Assembly: GCF_055900595.2 (NCBI RefSeq)
Contig: NZ_CM148325.1
Direction: 5' to 3' (one strand)
DNA: 64,000 bases
The first letter of the stretch is position 1; each line of letters opens with the position of its first letter. The notes under the pieces were generated by a model, which was not told the origin of the DNA, searched no databases, and saw only the letters and a list, made by a program, of their open reading frames with translations. Below are positions 21,649-56,174 of the stretch, piece after piece. Position numbers and translations under genes: made by a program.

Positions 21649-22615
21649 TTTCGATACCTCAATGCTTACAACAGAAAAGTATACTTTTACGAAGTTCGCC
21701 TTTGCAGGACTATATAAAGTTATCACTGGATGCAAGAGCCGGAAATCATGTATATCAGGATCAACTTTGTAATTCAATAACATATTATCCAGTGAAAAAG
21801 TAAGTATATTTAAGCTGGGGAAGGAGAAGGGGGACTTAATTTGATATTTTCATCAATAATATTATTTTACCTCCTCCATTATTCATTCAGGCCTGGTTCC
21901 GGGCGTAATTCCGATTTCTCTGTTGAAGCGATGCATTTATATTTAAATATTCACCTGTCATTGAATTTTATTTGAAATAGGAGAAAATCTCCTCCTGTAC
22001 TACAGATAACCCGGAATGTTCCTCGAAAGAAAATTCTGGCGCAGAATTCACGCCCGGTTCTGTTCAACATCATGCAGGATAACGATACCGAAACGTTAAA
22101 CTCTGGCAATTCTCGTGTTATACACAGGCAGGAGTGATTACTACGGTAAGAATTGCTGAAAAGGGGAGAACACTGAAGGCCTTATTCGCGAAGAATAAAG
22201 GAGACATTTCATGTAAATTATTATCAGAGATAACCTTCTCCAGGCGCTTTTGTTCGCTTCCTGAATTGCTACCTGATACATATTTACGGGATGCCAGCCT
22301 GGTGACTATAACTCCGAAAAGACCGATTATTGTATTGCGTGCATCCGGCATGTTTACAATGTACGCTGGTATCTAACGGAGTCTGACACAGATGCACGCA
22401 GGTGTATATTTTAACGTAATTATCCGGAAGGAACAGTATATTTTAATGCGGGAGTTGCATGAGCGGTATACGGGAGAAACTATCAGACCATGGGAGCTAC
22501 AGAGGTGCTTAAGTCTCGTAACATTATAATCTGCTCACCTGACTGGTGCTATTCTCACCTCAACACCAATGCACAAATAGCCTGGCTTATCGTTAATAAA
22601 AGTTACTCATACCGG

Positions 22616-23295
<680 letters not shown>

Positions 23296-23325
23296 TGATC
23301 CTACCCACGTAATGTGGACACGGCC

Positions 23326-23757
23326 CTAAGCGAGATTATGGTTTTCAAATTGTTCCGGGCTGAGACCGCCACAGGCACTGTGACGACGCCAGCGATTGTA
23401 ATCACACTCGATATAATTAAACACCGTTGCCCGCATTATTTCCCGGCTGCTAAAGCGTTCCCCGTGGATACATTCCACCTTCAGCGAATGAAAGAAGCTT
23501 TCCACACAGGCATTGTCATAACAGTAGCCTTTCGCACTCATACTGCCACGCAGGTTGTGTCGCTTCAGCAGCGCCTGATAATCCCCTGAACAGTATTGAC
23601 CACCACGGTCCGTATGAGCAATGACGCTTTCCGGGCGTCTTCTCCGCCACAACGCCATTTGCCGTGCATCACAGGCCAGTTGTGCTGTCATTCGCGGTGA
23701 CATCGACCAGCCAATGACGGCGCGTGACCACAGGTCGATGACTACTGTGAGATACAA
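23326..23757 (-). CDS. IS3 OrfB, part downstream of the intron (integrase core)
   Basis: ...[29 protein letters not shown]...HTDRGGQY...[15 protein letters not shown]... matches the IS3 OrfB catalytic region. Confidence 0.8.
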
Positions 23758-23867
23758 CCAGCCCTCATCGGTACGCAGTAGAGTAAGAGGCAGGGCGTAG
23801 TCGGACTATTTCCCTGCCTCTCCTCCCCGAACCGGACATGCACCTTTCAGCGCATCCGGCTCTCCAT

Positions 23868-24098
23868 TTAAACGCTGGCGAACGCCATTGCCACTTCTGT
23901 AAAGCGCGATGTATACGTCTTTCTGGTTTCCGTCCTCAGATAGGGATTACCTTCGGGTAGCCGCCAGCGGAACAGCTTCTTGCCTTGCCCCACCAACCGG
24001 TACAGTATTTCGCCGCTGAGCTTGCCGTGATTGGTTTTACCAAATAAAACCCACGTTTTGCTCTGACCCGGTTTCGGTGATTTACACCACCACCTCAT
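23868..24098 (-). pseudogene. C-terminal segment of the intron-encoded protein, separated from the RT ORF by a stop/frame change
   Basis: 76-aa ORF ...WWCKSPKPGQSKTWVLFGKTNHGKLSGEILYRLVGQGKKLFRWRLPEGNPYLR... resembles the C-terminal tail of bacterial intron-encoded proteins; not in frame with 24150..25391. Confidence 0.5.
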
Positions 24099-24149
24099 CA
24101 GGGAAGCGATACTTGTACGGTATTTGCGGGCCAGCCAGTGAGCCAGCTT

Positions 24150-25391
24150 CTAGAACACGACACGGTCGATATAACTGAAGACTTTGGCCTTAAAATCAAC
24201 GAACTGATAGAACATGGCCCAGCCTTTCAGTTTTCGGTTGAGTTGTTTAGCCATATCGACTTTGCTTTCACTGTAGTTGCCTGATAACAGTGCTGTCAGC
24301 GATGCGGCGAAGTTTCTGGCTTTCTCCAGCGGGATCGTTGAGACCACTTGCATCTCGCCATAACGACTGCGTTTGCGAATGATCCTGTGCCCCAGAAAGA
24401 TAAAGCCGTCATTAACATGGGTGATTTTAGTCTTATCCATGTTCAGCCTGAGTTTCAGACTGCCTTCGAGCACACCCCGACACTCCTCCCTGATGGCTTC
24501 CGCCTGTGCTTTGGTGCCTTTGACGATGAGGACAAAATCATCGGCATAGCGGCAGTACGCCACCGCGGGTTTCCACTGCCAGTTTTCTCTGACCGCCGTA
24601 CTTCGGCCCCGTTGGATACTGTTATTCCAGTACCACCGATCTTTTCTTGCTTTCCCGCTCAGGTAGCGCTCATGCAGGTATTGATCGAACTCATTCAGCA
24701 TGATGTTCGACAATAGCGGCGATATAACACCGCCCTGTGGCACACCTTCACTGGCCGCCCGAAAGAGACCGACATCGATATGTCCCGCCTTGATGGTTTT
24801 CCACAGCAGAGTCATGAAACGTGCGTCACTGATCCTGCGGCGTACAGCCTTCATCAGCAGTCGATGATGTACGGTGTCGAAGTAACTGGACAGGTCGCCT
24901 TCAATCACCCAGCGTCCCCGGGTTTCACCGCAGTCGGTGAGCTGTAATTTCACCGTGCGGATCGAGTGGTGGACACTGCGCTCAGGCCGGAAGCCATATG
25001 AGAGCGTATGAAAATCACTCTCCCATATCGGCTCCATCGCCATCAGCATGGCCCGCTGAACAATACGATCCCGCAACGCGGGGATACCCAGTGGTCGCAG
25101 TTTGCCATTGCTTTTAGGGATGTAAACCCGCCTGGCGGGCAAGGGCTGGTAGTGGCCTGAGAGTAATTCATCCCTGAGGATTTGCAGCTCAACAGCCAGT
25201 CTGGCCTGTAGCATTGTTTTGTTCACGCCATCAACACCGGGGGTATTCGCCCCCTTTGATGAAAGCGTGATCCGCGCCGCTTCAGCCAGCCATTCTGGTT
25301 GTGTTATCAGACGCAGCAGCCGTTGAATCCGTAGGGACGGATCGGTGGCTGCCCATGTGGCAAGCTTGCGTTGCATTTCGCTGATTATCAA
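24150..25391 (-). CDS. Group II intron-encoded reverse transcriptase/maturase
   Basis: 413-aa ORF with RT motifs (LRPLGIPALRDRIVQ, YADDFVLIV) and a following maturase-like region. Confidence 0.8.
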   Translation of the reverse strand: MIISEMQRKLATWAATDPSLRIQRLLRLITQPEWLAEAARITLSSKGANTPGVDGVNKTMLQARLAVELQILRDELLSGHYQPLPARRVYIPKSNGKLRPLGIPALRDRIVQRAMLMAMEPIWESDFHTLSYGFRPERSVHHSIRTVKLQLTDCGETRGRWVIEGDLSSYFDTVHHRLLMKAVRRRISDARFMTLLWKTIKAGHIDVGLFRAASEGVPQGGVISPLLSNIMLNEFDQYLHERYLSGKARKDRWYWNNSIQRGRSTAVRENWQWKPAVAYCRYADDFVLIVKGTKAQAEAIREECRGVLEGSLKLRLNMDKTKITHVNDGFIFLGHRIIRKRSRYGEMQVVSTIPLEKARNFAASLTALLSGNYSESKVDMAKQLNRKLKGWAMFYQFVDFKAKVFSYIDRVVF

Positions 25392-26048
25392 AGGTCTTCA
25401 CCTCGTTAGGTCAGTTAATTTACGTCGCAGACACATTCAAACTGCTTCCCTTCGCCATGTAATGGGCTTTCCCCATCGCGGACTACTACGGAAGCTCCGC
25501 CAGCCAGCGCGTCATCGGAGCCATGCCCCCTTAACATCCGTCGCTGACCTTCCCCGGTTTGCCTGACTGGACTCAGACATACTGAGGAGGCTGCCCGTCG
25601 CACTCTTTATCCTTGCTTGCCGCAAGTTGGCAGAAGTCAGCAACGCGAGCGTGATAGACGCTGCTGCCCCGGAGTTTCGCATACATGTCAAAACACCTTC
25701 GACCGGCAGTGCTTACGTATCACTGCCAGTTCCTCCTGCACGGCCTGTCAGATCACGTAGGCCGTGGTGACGTTTTCAACCCACAGAGGCGGATTAACGG
25801 GTTCATATTCTTAAGCCTTTCAGTACTTAACCTTGAGGATCATCTCGGCTTAGTGATCTCGCCTCAATCCCCGTTGTCAGCGGGTTACATCACCCTGCGG
25901 GCATGCCGCAGGTCACTGCCGCTCAGGTTCTCCACCGTCACACCCGGTGGGATTGTTGGGTTTCTCATCGTGAGTTACCGGTTCAATATTCCAGACAGAC
26001 TCGTGGTTCATTTGAGCGTCTATGCTCGCCCTGAACTCCGGGCACACA

Positions 26049-26450
26049 GTACGTGATGTCACCCACCCACTTCTGGTTCGGGCCGCTGGCGCTGAAGTCC
26101 TGCTCCAGCAGATTCTCCAATACGGGCAGGCCATGTGCACGGTAGCTGGCCGGGCTGAACTTCCGGCTGGCTTTCGCCCGCAGCCCCTGACGACGCAGGC
26201 TGGCGGCAATGGTTTTAATATTGAACTCCGGCAGTTCGTCAGCAAGGCGGGGAGCACCGTATCGCTGCTTTGCCTCAAAGAATGCCTTATGGACAGCGGC
26301 ATCGCAGGTGAGCCGAAACTGTTGGCGCAGGCTCATCTGGTGACGACGCCTGAGCCAGACATACCAGCCGCTGCGGGCAACCCGAAGTACACGACACATC
26401 GCTTTGATGCTGAACTCTGCCCGATGATTTTCGATGAAGACATACTTCAT
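26049..26450 (-). CDS. IS3 OrfB, part upstream of the intron
   Basis: [30 protein letters not shown]...[12 protein letters not shown], then the ORF-track frame reads into intron sequence. Confidence 0.8.
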
Positions 26451-26746
26451 TTCAGGCGCTTCGCGAAGTATGTCGCGGCCTTTTGGAGGATGGCCAGTTC
26501 CTCAGCCTGCTCCGCCAGTTGTCGTTTAAGGCGGACATTTTCAGCGGCCAGTTCGCTTTCGCGCTCTGACGAACTCATTTGTTGCTGCTGTTTACTGCGC
26601 CAGGCATAAAGCTGAGATTCATACAGGCTGAGTTCACGGGCTGTGGCGGCCACACCGATGCGTTCAGCGAGTTTCAGGGCTTCGTTACGAAATTCAGGCG
26701 TATGTTGTTTACGGGGCTTCTTGCTGATTGATACTGGTTTTGTCAT
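26447..26746 (-). CDS. IS3 OrfA (HTH/leucine-zipper protein)
   Basis: 99-aa [56 protein letters not shown]... Confidence 0.85.
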
Positions 26747-27030
26747 GAGTCACCCTGGTTAAGAGTTTACTCACTTAGTCCTGTGTCCACTATTGGTGGG
26801 TAAGATCAGTATGCGCTTACAGTCAAAGGTGTTCTGACATGTATGCAAAACACTGGGACATTAACGCTTATCACACTCGCGTTGCCGACCTCTGCCAATT
26901 TGCGGCAATCAAGACAAAGAGTGCGACGGGCAGTCTCCTCCCTCAGACAGGTGTGTACGATGCGGAGACATAGTAAACACTTGTTCGGAGACATGGTTGA
27001 TACTTACAACTAAGGCATCAGAACCCGTTT

Positions 27031-27971
27031 ATGGAGCCGCTTATGCCCAGGGAAGCGAGAGATACCATGTCACTACGTTCTGAGTTTGTTCTGCCCGCCT
27101 TCAGCACGGTGCATAACCTGATGGCCCGCAATGGCCTTCTGCCCGGTCTGGTTGCGGCAGCCCCGGCGACGGGCCGCTTCGAACACGCCGAACCAGCTCT
27201 GGCAGATGGATTTTAAGGGGCACTTTCCCTTTGGCGGTGGACGCTGCCATCCGTTAACGCTGCTGGATGATCATTCCCGTTTTTCCCTGTGTCTGGCTCA
27301 CTGCGCCAATGAACAACGGACGACCGTGCAGCAACAGCTGGTCAGCGTATTTGAACACTACGGACTGCCGGACAGGATGCACCTGGACGGCACTGGAGTT
27401 ATGGCTGATGCGTCAGGGTATCAAGGTGGGGCACTCCAGCCCGTACCATCCACAGACGCAGGGCAAGCTGGAACGTTTTCACCGCAGTCTGAAGGCGGAA
27501 GTTTTGCAGGGTAAGTGGTTTACAGATGCGGGTGAGTTGCAGCGCGCCTTCGATCACTGGCGTACAGTCTATAATCTTGAACGCCCGCATGAAGCTCTGG
27601 ATATGGCTGTTCCTGCCTCACGGTATCAGCCGTCAGCGCGACAGTTCAGGAGCAATGTAGAGCCGCCGGAGTATGACGAGGGTGTGGTAGTCAGGAAGGT
27701 GGATATCAGGGGTAAACTGAGTCTGAGAGGTGTCAGTCTGAGTGCGGGCAAGGCATTCAGAAATGAACGCCTGGGGCTGAAGGAGACGCAGGAAGACGGT
27801 CAGTATGAAGTCTGGTGGTACAGTACAAAAGTGGGGGTGATCGACCTGAAAAATAAGTCGATCACCATGGCAAAGAATGTTAAAAAGTGTTCACCATGTC
27901 CCCGAACACCTGTCTACCATGTCTCCGGATCGTACACAGGTGAACCCGGGAGGGTCAGCGATGGATATTAA
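27031..27971 (+). pseudogene. IS481-family transposase, 5'-truncated and frameshifted
   Basis: Three overlapping frames with integrase-core motifs (NQLWQMDFKGHFPFGG, SSPYHPQTQGKLERFHRSLK); begins directly beside the IS3 terminus at 26808. Confidence 0.55.
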
Positions 27972-28502
27972 GGAAACATGGCGCTGATGACGCGCTAGCG
28001 AAATGCAACGCAATCTTGCCACATAGGCAGCTACCGGCACCTCCAGACGGATAGAACGGCTACTGCGTCTGATAACACAACCAGAATGGCGGCAGCCCTG
28101 CAGACAGAAAATGTGGTAAAAGCGTTCAGACAGACTCTGAGGCTGGGAAAAATGACGAGTCCCCTGATACATCATTCTGTACTGTTCAGCTTTCTATCAA
28201 TCATTTCATGAAAAAAACGGGATGACTTGTTCAATCATGCTAAATGTTTGTAAAAACACAGCAATAAATTATATTAAATTCAGCCTTAATCAATAGATTA
28301 AATAACCGTAATAAATAAGAGTATTAGTGGTTTTTTCTATGGTTTTAATTGGTGGTATCTATTGGGGCAGCGTTGACACAGGTTTGATTTTTAAGAAAAA
28401 TACAAACTAATTTTAAGTCAAAAGAGTTTCATTGTCGTTCAAAGCGTTTATTTATTATAAATCAAAATATTAATTAGTTCTTTAATTTTTGTTATATACA
28501 AC

Positions 28503-29729
28503 ATGTCAGGAACTATACGAAAGATAATAAAAGAGGATGATGTATTTCATTCTTCTATTCGCCGTATTGAATGGTTGTTTGAAACATTCTCTTCTGTCTG
28601 TTTGTCTTTTTCCGGAGGAAAAGACTCCACTGTGCTGCTCCATCTTGCGGCTGATGTGGCTCGCAGGAAGAAACGTCGTTTCTCTGTATTATTCATTGAC
28701 TGGGAAGCTCAGTATCAGTGCACCATTGAACATGTTCAGAAGATGCGGGAAATGTACCGGGATGTGACGGATACCTTTTACTGGGTGGCACTCCCCCTGA
28801 CTACGGTAAATGGTGTCTCTCAGTTTCAGCCGGAATGGATATGCTGGGAACCAGGTGTGGAGTGGGTTCGTCAGCCACCAGATGACGCTATTACAGATAT
28901 GTCGTATTTCCCATTTTATCGGTATGCCATGACGTTTGAAGAATTTGTTCCGGCATTTTCTTCCTGGTTTGCCGGTAACCGGTGTGGAGTGGCAATACTG
29001 ACTGGTGTTCGTGCTGATGAATCGCTCAATCGCTTTATGGGACTGGTGTCTCAGCGCAAACTGAGATATGCAGATGATAAACCCTGGACCACAGCGTCAC
29101 CTGAAGGGTTTTATTACACCTTGTATCCGTTGTATGACTGGAAAGCCCGTGATATATGGATATATAACGCCAGAACCCGGGCTATCTACAATCCCCTGTA
29201 TGACCTGATGTACCGTGCCGGCGTGCCGTTACGCAACATGCGGGTCTGTGAGCCTTTTGGCCCGGAACAGCGTAAGGGACTGTGGCTTTACCATGTTCTG
29301 GAGCCGGAAACCTGGGCCAGGATGTGTGAGCGGGTGTCGGGTGCTGCCAGCGGGGCGCTTTATGCCAATGAGAGCGGTGCCTATTTTGCCCTGCGTAAGC
29401 GTATCACGAAGCCACCTCATCATACCTGGCGTAGCTATGCGATGTTCCTGCTGGATGTGATGCCGGAAAGAACGGCAGAACATTACCGTAATAAAATTGC
29501 TGTCTACCTGCGCTGGTATCAGACGCGGGGCTTCCCGGATGACATCCCGGATGAACAGGAGAATGACCTGGGGAGCCGGGATATCCCGTCCTGGCGACGT
29601 ATCTGTAAGACACTCATAAAGAATGATTTCTGGTGTCGGACCCTCTCCTTCAGTCCGAACAAACCCCGGCACTATGAACGTTATCTGCAGCGTATGAAAG
29701 AAAGGAGGAAGGAATGGGGGATTCTGTGA
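28503..29729 (+). CDS. ibrA: IbrA-like PAPS-reductase-family protein (PP-loop ATP pyrophosphatase fold with C-terminal extension)
   Basis: 408-aa ORF with PP-loop motif SFSGGKDS near the N-terminus, preceded by a ~500 bp AT-rich leader; stop overlaps the start of the ParB-like gene. Confidence 0.7.
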   Translation: MSGTIRKIIKEDDVFHSSIRRIEWLFETFSSVCLSFSGGKDSTVLLHLAADVARRKKRRFSVLFIDWEAQYQCTIEHVQKMREMYRDVTDTFYWVALPLTTVNGVSQFQPEWICWEPGVEWVRQPPDDAITDMSYFPFYRYAMTFEEFVPAFSSWFAGNRCGVAILTGVRADESLNRFMGLVSQRKLRYADDKPWTTASPEGFYYTLYPLYDWKARDIWIYNARTRAIYNPLYDLMYRAGVPLRNMRVCEPFGPEQRKGLWLYHVLEPETWARMCERVSGAASGALYANESGAYFALRKRITKPPHHTWRSYAMFLLDVMPERTAEHYRNKIAVYLRWYQTRGFPDDIPDEQENDLGSRDIPSWRRICKTLIKNDFWCRTLSFSPNKPRHYERYLQRMKERRKEWGIL

Positions 29730-30358
29730 CACCTGAGGTGGAAGTATTGAGCAACATGATTCGACAGTACTTCAGTCAGGAACGATCTGAAGAAGAGACC
29801 ATACGAGCCCTTAATCATCTGCGCAGGGTGTTGCATGAGGTCAGCCCTTTTGCACAGGAGCCTGTGGATTGTGTGTTGTGGGTGAAAGCGGATGAGGTGG
29901 TGGCCAACGATTACAATCCCAATGTCATGTCTTCCAGTGAAAAAAAACTGCTTAAACATTCACTGGAGCAGGATGGATTCACGCAGCCTGTGGTGGTTTC
30001 GGAAGAGAAGGAGCATTATCTGGTCGTGGATGGTTTTCATCGTCAGTTGCTGGGCAGGAAAGCGGATACGAGAAAACGTCTGAAGGGCTGGCTGCCAGTG
30101 GCCTGTATTAATCCAGAGAGAAAGGGACAGGCATCACGTATTGCCGCAACCATACGGCATAACCGTGCCAGGGGAAAACACCAGGTAACGTCAATGTCTG
30201 ACATTGTCAGGGACCTCTCACGTCTGGGCTGGACAGATGAGCGTATTGGCACAGAGTTGGGCATGGACCAGGATGAAGTGCTGAGGCTGAAACAGATTAG
30301 CGGGCTGACAGAGCTGTTTCAGGAAGAGGATTTCAGCCCTGCATGGACGGTTCGTTAA
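29714..30358 (+). CDS. ibrB: IbrB-like ParB/Srx-fold (ParB N-terminal nuclease-like domain) protein
   Basis: 214-aa ORF overlapping ibrA by 16 nt; region ...YLVVDGFHRQ... resembles the ParB N-terminal domain; C-terminal region HTH-like. Confidence 0.65.
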   Translation: MGDSVTPEVEVLSNMIRQYFSQERSEEETIRALNHLRRVLHEVSPFAQEPVDCVLWVKADEVVANDYNPNVMSSSEKKLLKHSLEQDGFTQPVVVSEEKEHYLVVDGFHRQLLGRKADTRKRLKGWLPVACINPERKGQASRIAATIRHNRARGKHQVTSMSDIVRDLSRLGWTDERIGTELGMDQDEVLRLKQISGLTELFQEEDFSPAWTVR

Positions 30359-39959: not shown

Positions 39960-40700
39960 ATATCTTGGTCAAATAATGGTGTCGTCGATATTCTTCCAGC
40001 GTCTTATTGTTCAGTGATTCATGTGTGCGTTCATAGCTATATTCTGATAACCATTTCTCCGTAATTTCTAGAACTTCATTCAGCGTTCTGAACAGATAAA
40101 AATCGAGTATTTCTGTACGGTGTGTCCTGTTAAAACGCCCAATAAAAGCGTTCTACGTCAGCTTACCCGGCTGGATAAACTCCCGTTTTACTGCGTGTAT
40201 ATCAGCCCATTCAGCCAGCGTTAGAGAGATAAATTCCGAACCATTATCTATGCGCAGCATGACCGGATAACTGCGATTTGCCGCGAACCTGCTGCCTCAG
40301 AACCTGAAAAAGTTTTGAAAAACCGTATCGAGGATATCGCTCGTCCACTGCCTGCACCACCACAATAACGGGGTCGTACCACGTGGTATCCGGACGGTAA
40401 TGGGAAACCGTTCTGCTCTGGTTCAGACTCCGGCAGGCCTGATGGACACTGAGTCCAAATGTCGTTATCTGATGAGTAACAAGCTCACGCTTACAGGCTG
40501 GTTTTAAAGCTTTTTTCGATAATGTCTTTCAATGCCGGTTCTCTAGGCTAAGGTCGGCAAGCATCTGTTTTGGACGTCGGTTCTCGTCCTCAAGATCCTC
40601 GTTCTTTTTAATATCAGGTGACTCTATGCATCGTATCTGGGCTTCCAGTTCATGGAATGGAGTACCCCCTCCTTTTGCGGTTAACTGTACGAAATGCACT
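39960..40700 (-). pseudogene. Degenerate IS3-family transposase remnant
   Basis: Reverse-strand translation gives integrase-core-like stretches (...FIQPGKLT.NAFIGRFNRTHRTEILDFYLFRTLNEV...) broken by several stops; no ORF >60 aa. Confidence 0.3.
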
Positions 40701-53940: not shown

Positions 53941-54298
53941 TTAAGATACAATAGCAGTCTGATATTGAGGGGGCAAGAACATCCGAACCACACCAGCCTG
54001 TGACTTATACCCTGTCTCTACGACCCAGAGAGTATTATTCTTAATAATCTCATAATATATACACAATAGGAAGTATCTATTAACAAAATAGAGAACATCG
54101 TTTTTACTATCAAATAGTTGCACTGTATTAATATGATTAAACTTTAAAAAAGTTTCAGGCTGATCAGGAGGAGTTATGAAAAAAATAAATATTTTAATTC
54201 TGTGTCTGTTTTCTGGAGCGTCGTGGGCAAGTGACGTAGATAATGTTAAGTGCTGATGAATCCCCTAATGATTTTTATCAAAATCATTAAGTTAAGGT

Positions 54299-54367
54299 AG
54301 ATACACATCTTGTCATATGATCAAATGGTTTCGCCAAAAATCAATAATCAGACAACAAAATGTGCGA
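54299..54367 (-). ncRNA. IS10 antisense RNA-OUT (inferred by position, not verified)
   Basis: Same positional inference as for copy 1; this copy carries substitutions at outside-end positions 24-27 and 47. Confidence 0.3.
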
Positions 54368-55568
54368 ACTCGATATTTTACACGACTCTCTTTACCAATT
54401 CTGCCCCGAATTACACTTAAAACGACTCAACAGCTTAACGTTGGCTTGCCACGCCTTACTTGACTGTAAAACTCTCACTCTTACCGAACTTGGCCGTAAC
54501 CTGCCAACCAAAGCGAGAACAAAACATAACATCAAACGAATCGACCGATTGTTAGGTAATCGTCACCTCCACAAAGAGCGACTCGCTGTATACCGTTGGC
54601 ATGCTAGCTTTATCTGTTCGGGCAATACGATGCCCATTGTACTTGTTGACTGGTCTGATATCCGTGAGCAAAAACGGCTTATGGTATTGCGAGCTTCAGT
54701 CGCACTACACGGTCGTTCTGTTACTCTTTATGAGAAAGCGTTCCCGCTTTCAGAGCAATGTTCAAAGAAAGCTCATGACCAATTTCTAGCCGACCTTGCG
54801 AGCATTCTACCGAGTAACACCACACCGCTCATTGTCAGTGATGCTGGCTTTAAAGTGCCATGGTATAAATCCGTTGAGAAGCTGGGTTGGTACTGGTTAA
54901 GTCGAGTAAGAGGAAAAGTACAATATGCAGACCTAGGAGCGGAAAACTGGAAACCTATCAGCAACTTACATGATATGTCATCTAGTCACTCAAAGACTTT
55001 AGGCTATAAGAGGCTGACTAAAAGCAATCCAATCTCATGCCAAATTCTATTGTATAAATCTCGCTCTAAAGGCCGAAAAAATCAGCGCTCGACACGGACT
55101 CATTGTCACCACCCGTCACCTAAAATCTACTCAGCGTCGGCAAAGGAGCCATGGATTCTAGCAACTAACTTACCTGTTGAAATTCGAACACCCAAACAAC
55201 TTGTTAATATCTATTCGAAGCGAATGCAGATTGAAGAAACCTTCCGAGACTTGAAAAGTCCTGCCTACGGACTAGGCCTACGCCATAGCCGAACGAGCAG
55301 CTCAGAGCGTTTTGATATCATGCTGCTAATCGCCCTGATGCTTCAACTAACATGTTGGCTTGCGGGCGTTCATGCTCAGAAACAAGGTTGGGACAAGCAC
55401 TTCCAGGCTAACACAGTCAGAAATCGAAACGTACTCTCAACAGTTCGCTTAGGCATGGAAGTTTTGCGGCATTCTGGCTACACAATAACAAGGGAAGACT
55501 CACTCGTGGCTGCAACCCTGCTTACTCAAAATCTATTCACACATGGTTACGTTTTGGGGAAATTATGA
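54360..55568 (+). CDS. IS10 transposase
   Basis: 402-aa ORF identical in translation to 4125..5333. Confidence 0.95.
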   Translation: MCELDILHDSLYQFCPELHLKRLNSLTLACHALLDCKTLTLTELGRNLPTKARTKHNIKRIDRLLGNRHLHKERLAVYRWHASFICSGNTMPIVLVDWSDIREQKRLMVLRASVALHGRSVTLYEKAFPLSEQCSKKAHDQFLADLASILPSNTTPLIVSDAGFKVPWYKSVEKLGWYWLSRVRGKVQYADLGAENWKPISNLHDMSSSHSKTLGYKRLTKSNPISCQILLYKSRSKGRKNQRSTRTHCHHPSPKIYSASAKEPWILATNLPVEIRTPKQLVNIYSKRMQIEETFRDLKSPAYGLGLRHSRTSSSERFDIMLLIALMLQLTCWLAGVHAQKQGWDKHFQANTVRNRNVLSTVRLGMEVLRHSGYTITREDSLVAATLLTQNLFTHGYVLGKL

Positions 55569-56174
55569 GGGGATCTCTCAGTGTTAAGTGTATTCGGGTA
55601 GATAGTAAAGACATTGAAAGGTTATTCGATCGCTGGAATGAATCATTAAAAACAGGTGATGCCAAGAAGGTTGCTGATAACTATTTAAGTGATGCGATCT
55701 TACTGCCCACAGTATCAAAAAAAATTAGGATTACAGATGCAGAAAGAGTTGACTATTTTGAGCATTTTTTGAAAAAAAAACCTGTTGGAGAAATAAACTT
55801 CAGAACTATTCGCATTGGATGCAATATGGCTCTTGATACAGGGAATTACACGTTTACTTTTGAAGATAAAAAACAAGTTTCAGCACGCTATAGTTTCGCT
55901 TATGAGTGGGATGGAAAGGATTGGAAAATATCATCCCATCATTCATCTGTAGTGCCAACAACATAATATATTGAGCCTGTTTACCATTCTCTGTTAATGC
56001 CTTCTCTTAAAAGTGACCGTCCAAGCGGTCACTGATTACCCATTCTTAATTCAGTGCAGGATTAAAATATATGTGCAAAATAATTTAATTCAGACAGCTT
56101 TTTATTTCACTATGGCTATCCCAGATATCGACGACGGATGAAAAGTGGCTCTTACGCAACCTGGATGGAGATTT

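Follow-up and report, generated by a model that had tools for sequence, protein, structure and literature searches.

We analysed a 64,000-nucleotide (nt) stretch of DNA (contig NZ_CM148325.1 of RefSeq assembly GCF_055900595.2; hereafter 'the window'), in which the transposase gene of an insertion sequence (IS) of the IS3 family is interrupted by a group II intron. We consider it very probable that a copy of E.c.I4, a mobile group II intron, homed into ISEc16 here and has since become a fossil, with a nonsense codon in the gene for its reverse transcriptase (RT)/maturase and with broken base pairs in its ribozyme. The locus had been singled out in an earlier note made from the letters of the window.

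That note had described a 3513-bp IS3-family element whose orfB breaks off after the residues GDITY for about 2270 bp, with an insert that starts with GTGTG and ends with TAC and whose removal restores OrfB. These claims held up. The insert measures exactly 2270 nt, begins with GTGTG and finishes with CTCTAC, and orfB resumes 2270 nt after the break as (L)RTDEGWLYL. Excising the intron—which is placed one base past the Tyr codon—leaves an open OrfB frame of 284 amino acids (aa) that reads WVGDITY/LRTDEGW across the junction (the slash, here and below, marks the insertion point) and scores 315.8 bits on the NCBIfam IS3 transposase model NF033516 (cut-off 160). When a 200-nt query of the joined flanks was compared to uninterrupted elements, it matched copies annotated as 'IS3-like element ISEc16' over its full length, in one ungapped piece and at 99% identity. 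Matches were returned from 667 records, 607 of which cover at least 80% of the query. As the uninterrupted copies match the spliced junction without a gap, the intron boundaries are exact.

The same comparison bears on the host. An intact ISEc16 in E. coli 536, so named by RefSeq and annotated with a programmed frameshift, spans 1244 bp, and the two halves in the window match it at 99.0% identity, with 11 substitutions and a 1-bp deletion. The terminal inverted repeats are imperfect (TGATCTTACCCAC... and TGATCCTACCCAC...; pattern TGATC(T/C)TACCCAC), and orfA overlaps the spliced orfB at AAATGA in the -1 frame arrangement of the IS3 family. In length, OrfB falls 5 aa short of its IS3 counterpart. 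These features identify the host as ISEc16; where the earlier note spoke of IS3 orfB, the family was right, yet the element is not IS3 proper. An Rfam scan of the window returned 21 bits for the frameshift pseudoknot family ALIL, compared to a gathering score of 50. The 1-bp deletion relative to E. coli 536 lies at 26754-26755, in the Shine-Dalgarno region of orfA (AGAGGTG to AGGGTG), and might reduce ISEc16 expression, the intron aside.

With respect to the ribozyme, the covariance model of Rfam family RF00029 (Intron_gpII) matched 23864..23778 on the minus strand with 64 bits (gathering score 40; E = 4e-11), the sole match to this family in the window and in line with the domain V-like hairpin noticed earlier near the 3' end. 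Folding of this stretch (z = -5.9) recovers domain V, with its AGC triad, a loop of sequence GAAA and a bulge of two nt, and domain VI, in which an A bulges out seven nt before the 3' end. Domains I-III returned no match to the Rfam D1-D4 models at E ≤ 1, and the long-range pairs of an automatic consensus fold of these domains were credible only in part. Seven helices within domains I-III are backed by compensatory changes across 16 relatives. Two further contacts were dismissed: a hairpin pairing nt 245-249 with 266-270, as nt 247-250 pair with 451-454 with covariation, and kissing of the loops at nt 289-296 and 328-336, for which covariation was absent. Canonical ends, domain V/VI and an RT/maturase open reading frame (ORF) together mark the insert as a complete group II intron.

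The encoded protein is indeed the RT/maturase that had been proposed. With its internal stop codon repaired, it matches Pfam RVT_1 (residues 86-332) and GIIM (356-426), reaches 335.6 bits on the NCBIfam equivalog TIGR04416 (cut-off 300), and has LtrA (best, E = 5e-52) and GsI-IIC RT as its closest solved structures. RVT_1 and GIIM were the only domains found in this Pfam search, which thus detected no endonuclease/HNH domain. E.c.I4 is an endonuclease-less intron of ORF class A (PMC3552965; PMC3522654), and it is by this literature label, together with the lacking endonuclease domain, that the window intron belongs to class A. The earlier note had further called the maturase frame broken, with a 413-aa and a separate 76-aa ORF. 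Both ORFs exist (24150..25391 and 23868..24098) and the protein is truncated, but the two lie in one and the same frame, separated by a single TAG that derives from TGG—a nonsense change. The TTG at 25391, from which the 413-aa ORF was counted, is just the earliest codon that could serve as a start; annotation places the start at the ATG at 25376, for a gene of 502 codons, and the intact allele WP_001189111.1 has 502 aa. With the stop at Trp409, which falls within the maturase domain, the protein loses its final 94 residues; RefSeq labels near-identical copies 'ltrA ... internal stop'. Ten outgroup introns, the most distant of them 66% identical, all have the G that is changed in this codon. 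Downstream of the stop, the frame carries further amino-acid changes (G422S, N486K and I502V) relative to an intact copy on a Citrobacter IncN plasmid. As the truncation takes away the C-terminal extension along with the end of the maturase domain, maturase function has probably been lost.

E.c.I4 was reportedly first named by Dai and Zimmerly in 2002. It targets 'various IS3 elements', at set positions in the transposase genes of IS629, IS911, ISEc16 and ISEc31 (Leclercq & Cordaux 2012, PMC3522654). Aligning the window intron to catalogued introns, as had been suggested, we fetched named copies by the coordinates in Table S3 of that study and obtained 98.5% identity to E.c.I4-10 (NC_011750 489783-492052) and 99.87% to E.c.I4-25 (NC_010498 3241200-3243470). 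Because sequences more than 95% identical share an intron name (PMC3552965), the window intron is E.c.I4, and the view that it represents an instance and not a new class was correct. E.c.I4-25, from SMS-3-5, shares with it the length of 2270 nt, the host IS and insertion point, the flanking pseudogenes and the internal stop; the two differ by three substitutions within the intron and are 99.8% identical over the 5.3-kb neighbourhood. The window locus is its orthologue. E.c.I4-25 is listed as a full-length class A intron with a disrupted ORF in a genomic island (PMC3522654), so the defect is already published. The identity as E.c.I4, the preference for the IS3 family, the residence in ISEc16 and the disrupted ORF at this locus have all been known since 2012.

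Intact main-lineage copies, such as E.c.I4-10 of IAI39 and that on the Citrobacter IncN plasmid (NZ_CP026211; protein WP_001189111.1), are 98.5-98.6% identical to the window intron without indels, have the same domain layout, and interrupt an IS3-family orfB at the identical codon position, GD(I/V)TY/I. In contrast to the window copy, they have an open 502-codon ORF, G235, C241, A375, G482 and a domain V AC bulge, and they reside in other IS3-family members, e.g. related IS3-type elements on pO157-type plasmids, with many copies per genome (15 in IAI39).

Relative to the intact Citrobacter IncN plasmid copy, the window intron carries 31 substitutions and no indels. We polarised these differences with ten full-length relatives from other genera that are 66-96% identical. 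Twenty of them arose in the window lineage, 11 of which hit sites where all relatives have one and the same base, as compared to one of the 11 changes in the main lineage. Three derived bases, U482, U235 and U375, produce mismatches at the pairs 53-482, 235-455 and 353-375, each of which is paired in 16/16 relatives and two of which show covariation. A fourth, U241, alters an otherwise invariant 11-nt bulge (AAGAACAUGAA). The domain V bulge reads AU in the window and AC in all relatives; having been considered as a catalytic knockout, this C-to-U change was downgraded, as AU fits the 'AY bulge' of the general group II domain V consensus (PMC4424553). The window, SMS-3-5 and E. coli ECCNB12-2 have TAG409, U235, U241 and the U of the domain V bulge in common; ECCNB12-2 differs from the window at one intron position. 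E377K (window 24248) is private to the window relative to both. The pattern indicates that the ribozyme, besides the protein, is decaying.

Spread of this lineage was assessed with a 110-nt query over the 5' junction of ISEc16 and intron, which includes five lineage-specific bases. The junction was recovered at ≥99% identity in 55 records, with one place per record among the full-length 100% matches listed, while many genomes matched only the uninterrupted ISEc16 half of the query. A single junction place and a broken ORF fit one ancient insertion that has been passively inherited since. Together with the helix-breaking changes, the single place in 55 records and the common empty ISEc16 lend indirect support to the earlier suggestion that the intron may be unable to mobilise. 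Coordinates are collected in Table 1.

Table 1 Features of the intron-bearing ISEc16 and of the older remnants around it (window coordinates)
Feature	Position	Strand	Remark
ISEc16 (IS3 family) with intron	23296..26808	-	3513 bp; 1243 bp minus intron
ISEc16 left terminal inverted repeat	26783..26808	-	21/26 positions match the right end inverted
ISEc16 right terminal inverted repeat	23296..23321	-	inverted counterpart of left end
orfA of ISEc16, 99 aa, intact	26447..26746	-	
orfB exon 1 of ISEc16	26048..26450	-	ends WVGDITY + one base
orfB exon 2 of ISEc16	23326..23777	-	from (L)RTDEGW through stop codon
Homing-site motif TGG N6 GAY RTN ACN TAY	26049..26069	-	W-x-x-D-I-T-Y; only match in window, and occupied; 0 expected by chance
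Group II intron E.c.I4, ORF class A, 2270 nt	23778..26047	-	98.5-98.6% to intact E.c.I4 copies
5' splice-site consensus GUGUG	26043..26047	-	
Ribozyme domains I-III and 5' part of domain IV	25377..26047	-	intron nt 1-671; compensatory changes in 16 relatives
Covariation-backed helices and hairpins			intron nt 48-58/477-487, 222-228/463-469, 230-235/455-460, 247-250/451-454; hairpins 282-309, 351-377
Candidate exon-binding site 1, loop UGUAUG, intron nt 363-368	25680..25685	-	in register with target -1..-6
RT/maturase gene ltrA, 502 codons, pseudogene	23868..25376	-	intron nt 672-2180
Premature amber stop, TGG to TAG at Trp409	24150..24152	-	A at window 24151
Domain V: AGC triad, GAAA loop, 2-nt bulge	23829..23862	-	
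Domain VI and 3' end	23778..23826	-	bulged branch-point A at 23784, terminal UAC
Remnant of a different IS3-family orfB, host of older intron	22574..23204	+	RefSeq pseudogene in collinear genome
Older E.c.I4-like remnant, ~nt 29-118, ended by ISEc16 insertion	23205..23295	+	91% to E.c.I4 nt 32-118
Older intron remnant, nt 332-464	26809..26940	+	82% identical; 'E.c.I4-tr2' of PMC3522654
Older intron remnant, nt 483-545 and 666-759, past another IS insertion	27937..28090	+	RefSeq 'reverse transcriptase' pseudogene fragment

We propose the following history for the locus. An RNA-protein particle would have reverse-spliced the intron RNA into the sense strand of the ISEc16 transposase gene, at the DNA encoding W-x-x-D-I-T-Y, and the inserted RNA would then have been copied into DNA. 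Because the intron protein lacks an endonuclease, priming probably came from a replication fork, by analogy with RmInt1, whose protein likewise has no endonuclease domain and which mainly reverse-splices into single-stranded DNA at the lagging-strand template (PMC8914252). RmInt1, from Sinorhizobium meliloti (ISRm2011-2), is also described as homing into an IS transposase gene and building up inactive copies. It differs from E.c.I4 in being a class D rather than a class A intron and in having another host IS family member and target sequence; at the nucleotide level, the window intron shows only weak partial matches of 60-80% to rhizobial plasmids. The 15 E.c.I4 copies of IAI39 (Table S3 of PMC3522654) lie mostly on the minus strand before ~1.6-1.7 Mb and mostly on the plus strand after it, an apparent flip that may reflect a replication-direction bias such as is expected of endonuclease-less introns.

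While intact, the copy in ISEc16 would have been transcribed within the IS mRNA and excised with its own maturase, restoring the orfB message. The amber at Trp409 would then have ended the protein within the maturase domain, after which three substitutions would have broken helices and one would have altered the invariant bulge base. The decayed copy is most likely immobile and without a maturase of its own, and ISEc16 has probably been left without full-length transposase: with the maturase truncated, the element would lack full-length OrfAB unless a helper protein is present. The single way out would be maturase donated in trans by another, intact E.c.I4 in the same cell. The locus would since have been carried passively, once per genome, in an IS-riddled chromosomal island with aerobactin, sit and sodC genes.

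Several points weigh against a fossil. The case for lost splicing and mobility is built on sequence comparison. The truncated 408-aa protein still contains all of the RT domain and some two thirds of the maturase domain. While the region C-terminal to the maturase domain is required for splicing and mobility in class D proteins (PMC3552965), this requirement is documented for class D and not for class A. Each of the three broken pairs is a single mismatch in a long helix and perhaps tolerated, and the domain V AU bulge still lies inside the general 'AY' consensus. Finally, the intron family is common, with matches in 2668 of the 5426 complete E. coli genomes and in 2207 plasmids. The median number of places per genome is one, and some genomes with the window locus have 2-7 places, so trans-complementation is possible for a genome of which 64 kb are visible here.

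The alternative that survives best builds on this last point. It holds that the copy is defective in cis but functional, an intact E.c.I4 elsewhere providing maturase/RT in trans, such that the intron is spliced and perhaps mobilised and ISEc16 is live. We regard this as unlikely, even though it could draw on much that is intact at the locus: orfA and orfB are open, both inverted repeats are present, both splice sites are preserved, as are the triad of domain V and the branch A, and the RNA is 98.6% identical to intact copies from a very common intron that occupies up to seven places in some genomes with the locus. Yet no second intron copy was found in the window, the median is a single place in each genome, and the lineage itself sits at one place per record in 55 records, with empty ISEc16 common across the genome collection (not necessarily in the same genomes). 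Three helix-breaking changes and the change in the invariant bulge point to relaxed selection on the RNA. In addition, group II intron proteins generally favour the RNA that encodes them, which counts against rescue from another copy.

Far less probable is that readthrough of the amber codon, or a natural suppressor, yields some full-length protein with a changed residue 409 and partial activity. There is a single in-frame TAG, and the 93 codons downstream of it remain open in frame. Against this, the window contains no tRNA genes, and hence no visible suppressor; Trp409 rests on a nucleotide that is invariant down to 66% identity; G422S, N486K and I502V have accumulated beyond the stop; and the lineage gives no sign of spread. 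Slighter still is the chance that the interrupted IS has been retained as useful, for instance with an unspliceable intron serving as an off-switch that protects the virulence island from ISEc16 rearrangement. At least 55 genomes, with chickens, humans, swine and wild birds as sources, carry the locus unchanged, which such a role might explain, but linkage to the island fully accounts for this persistence, the neighbourhood consists of pseudogenised IS fragments throughout, and the 20 derived substitutions, helix-breaking ones included, speak for neutral decay and not for selection. Although IS copies and introns are, as repeats, classic sources of misassembly, we give almost no weight to a sequencing or assembly artefact behind the stop codon or the nesting, since the same TAG and neighbourhood recur at 99.9-100% identity in the independent complete assemblies SMS-3-5, ECCNB12-2 and dozens more, from which the window departs by only one private intron substitution. 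We thus favour an E.c.I4 copy that entered ISEc16 and has since decayed.

To place this insertion within its family, we scanned one genome per species with the first 21 nt of the intron as the query. The scan returned 34 related loci (L005-L038) in Serratia, Hafnia, Erwinia, Yersinia pestis, Pectobacterium, Pseudomonas, Marinobacter, Photobacterium, Halioglobus and others, with relatives 66-96% identical to E.c.I4. In 2013, class A comprised just three near-identical members, and S.f.I1 of Shigella flexneri, whose ORF sequence is 99% identical to that of E.c.I4, was among these very few (PMC3552965); the homologues listed here indicate that the E.c.I4 family is much broader. Nearly all 34 loci sit at TGG-NNN-NNN-GAY-(A/G)TY-ACN-TAY-N/, which codes for W-x-x-D-(I/V)-T-Y of a DDE transposase, and base +1 downstream of the intron is T in 12/12 copies with a readable 3' junction. 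It is conceivable, though in our estimate quite improbable, that E.c.I4-type introns, in many gammaproteobacterial genera, home to the DNA of this catalytic transposase motif and not to one IS, with guanines opposite third-codon pyrimidines tolerating synonymous changes. How the target is recognised, and whether exon mimicry plays any part, is a matter of speculation.

No published assignment of E.c.I4 exon-binding sites (EBS) was found in the literature searched. We tentatively put forward the loop at nt 363-368 as EBS1: its two variable positions face the two variable positions of the target, and it is the only candidate that pairs, if weakly, with its own target in preference to shuffled ones (85 vs 80.2 ± 2.9 pairs, p ~0.07). 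Since the target bases are frozen by the protein motif, target-intron covariation tests are powerless. Complementarity to the target was also seen in two other segments: nt 289-296 (UACGUGAU), in a hairpin loop backed by covariation, can pair at 8/8 positions with -3..-10 of the window target, and nt 155-161 (GUGAUGU), part of an internal loop, can pair with -6..-12 in every relative. We rejected AGUAC at nt 221-225 as EBS1 despite its 5/5 match to the last five exon bases, as nt 222-228 pair with 463-469 with multiple compensatory changes and the match also fails in other copies. The 14-nt loop at nt 289-302 (UACGUGAUCUGACA; window 25746-25759) is complementary both to exon -3..-10 (8/8) and to the loop AUCACG at nt 393-398 (6/6; window 25650-25655). 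The latter has the same sense as the exon and could, speculatively, serve as an internal exon mimic. One compensatory change was noted, in relative L013; an exon contact, a tertiary loop-loop contact or coincidence are all possible.

ISEc16, for its part, interrupts an older E.c.I4-like intron that has diverged further (82-91% identity) and in turn lies in another IS3-family orfB, so that the nesting is four deep: IS, intron, IS, intron. The middle piece of this older intron corresponds to the 132-bp E.c.I4-tr2 fragment that the table in PMC3522654 lists for the same island, as the only piece of it. An 87% relative of the outer IS reads PDRVW-CEDITY/IWAGNRW, which shows that the older intron sat at the canonical site. 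Its 5' splice junction (window 23197-23212) disappeared with the loss of ~47 nt between two imperfect repeats, GGGTATGG in the exon and GGGCATGG at intron nt 21-28. The 26 exon nt upstream of GGGTATGG resemble the first 28 nt of the intron (~20/28), which may be chance. Local alignment had suggested that the outer remnant has a complete 5' end at an odd site, LLECRF/CUGUG; this was discarded, as the 87% relative shows the stretch to be exon. At the ISEc16 junction, nt 119-331 of the older intron (~213 nt) are absent. No direct repeat, and hence no target-site duplication, was found around ISEc16, whose flanks read GGTGGAG/IS/GTATGCG; the missing duplication and the ~213 nt lost point to a deletion or rearrangement after insertion. 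Further along, at window 26941-27936, a fragment of another IS splits the older intron; the collinear genome has a frameshifted 'integrase core domain-containing protein' pseudogene annotated at ~27091-27875.

This collinear genome is that of E. coli ECCNB12-2, in which a chromosomal island matches window positions 1-46746 at 99.95%. The island includes iucABCD-iutA, sitABCD, sodC, an ibrAB-like pair (28503-30358) and dozens of IS pseudogenes; ECCNB12-2 has one copy of IS66 that the window lacks. The outer IS remnant, with another deletion, is also present on plasmids of the ColV type, which hints at a plasmid origin of the island. Two IS10 copies of 1329 bp each (4112-5440 and 54253-55581) lie inverted ~49 kb apart in the window; they are 99.7% identical, with Rfam matches to RNA-OUT, and the left one breaks the aerobactin gene iucB, as seen from the comparison with ECCNB12-2. 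A composite transposon was ruled out for this pair, as each copy has its own 9-bp duplication (TGCAGAGCG and TGTTAAGTG) and the two are independent insertions. Rfam also returned two Salmonella-type small RNAs, STnc490 (133.7 bits; 18749-18870), beside the sit operon, and isrN (138.2 bits; 40363-40505), as well as a sub-threshold match to isrC (30.8 bits, gathering score 39) at 22565-22647, just upstream of the outer IS remnant.

As a single locus, the window copy has little discovery value, given its publication in 2012 and the pseudogene flag it already bears in RefSeq. For annotation, ISEc16 should here be treated as non-autonomous. The interest of the locus lies in how cleanly it illustrates the life cycle of selfish elements, from invasion at the most conserved catalytic motif of an IS, through one nonsense knockout, to decay of both protein and ribozyme, the intron meanwhile being carried passively in a virulence-associated island; and the nested remnant shows that this spot had been invaded in a similar way on one earlier occasion.

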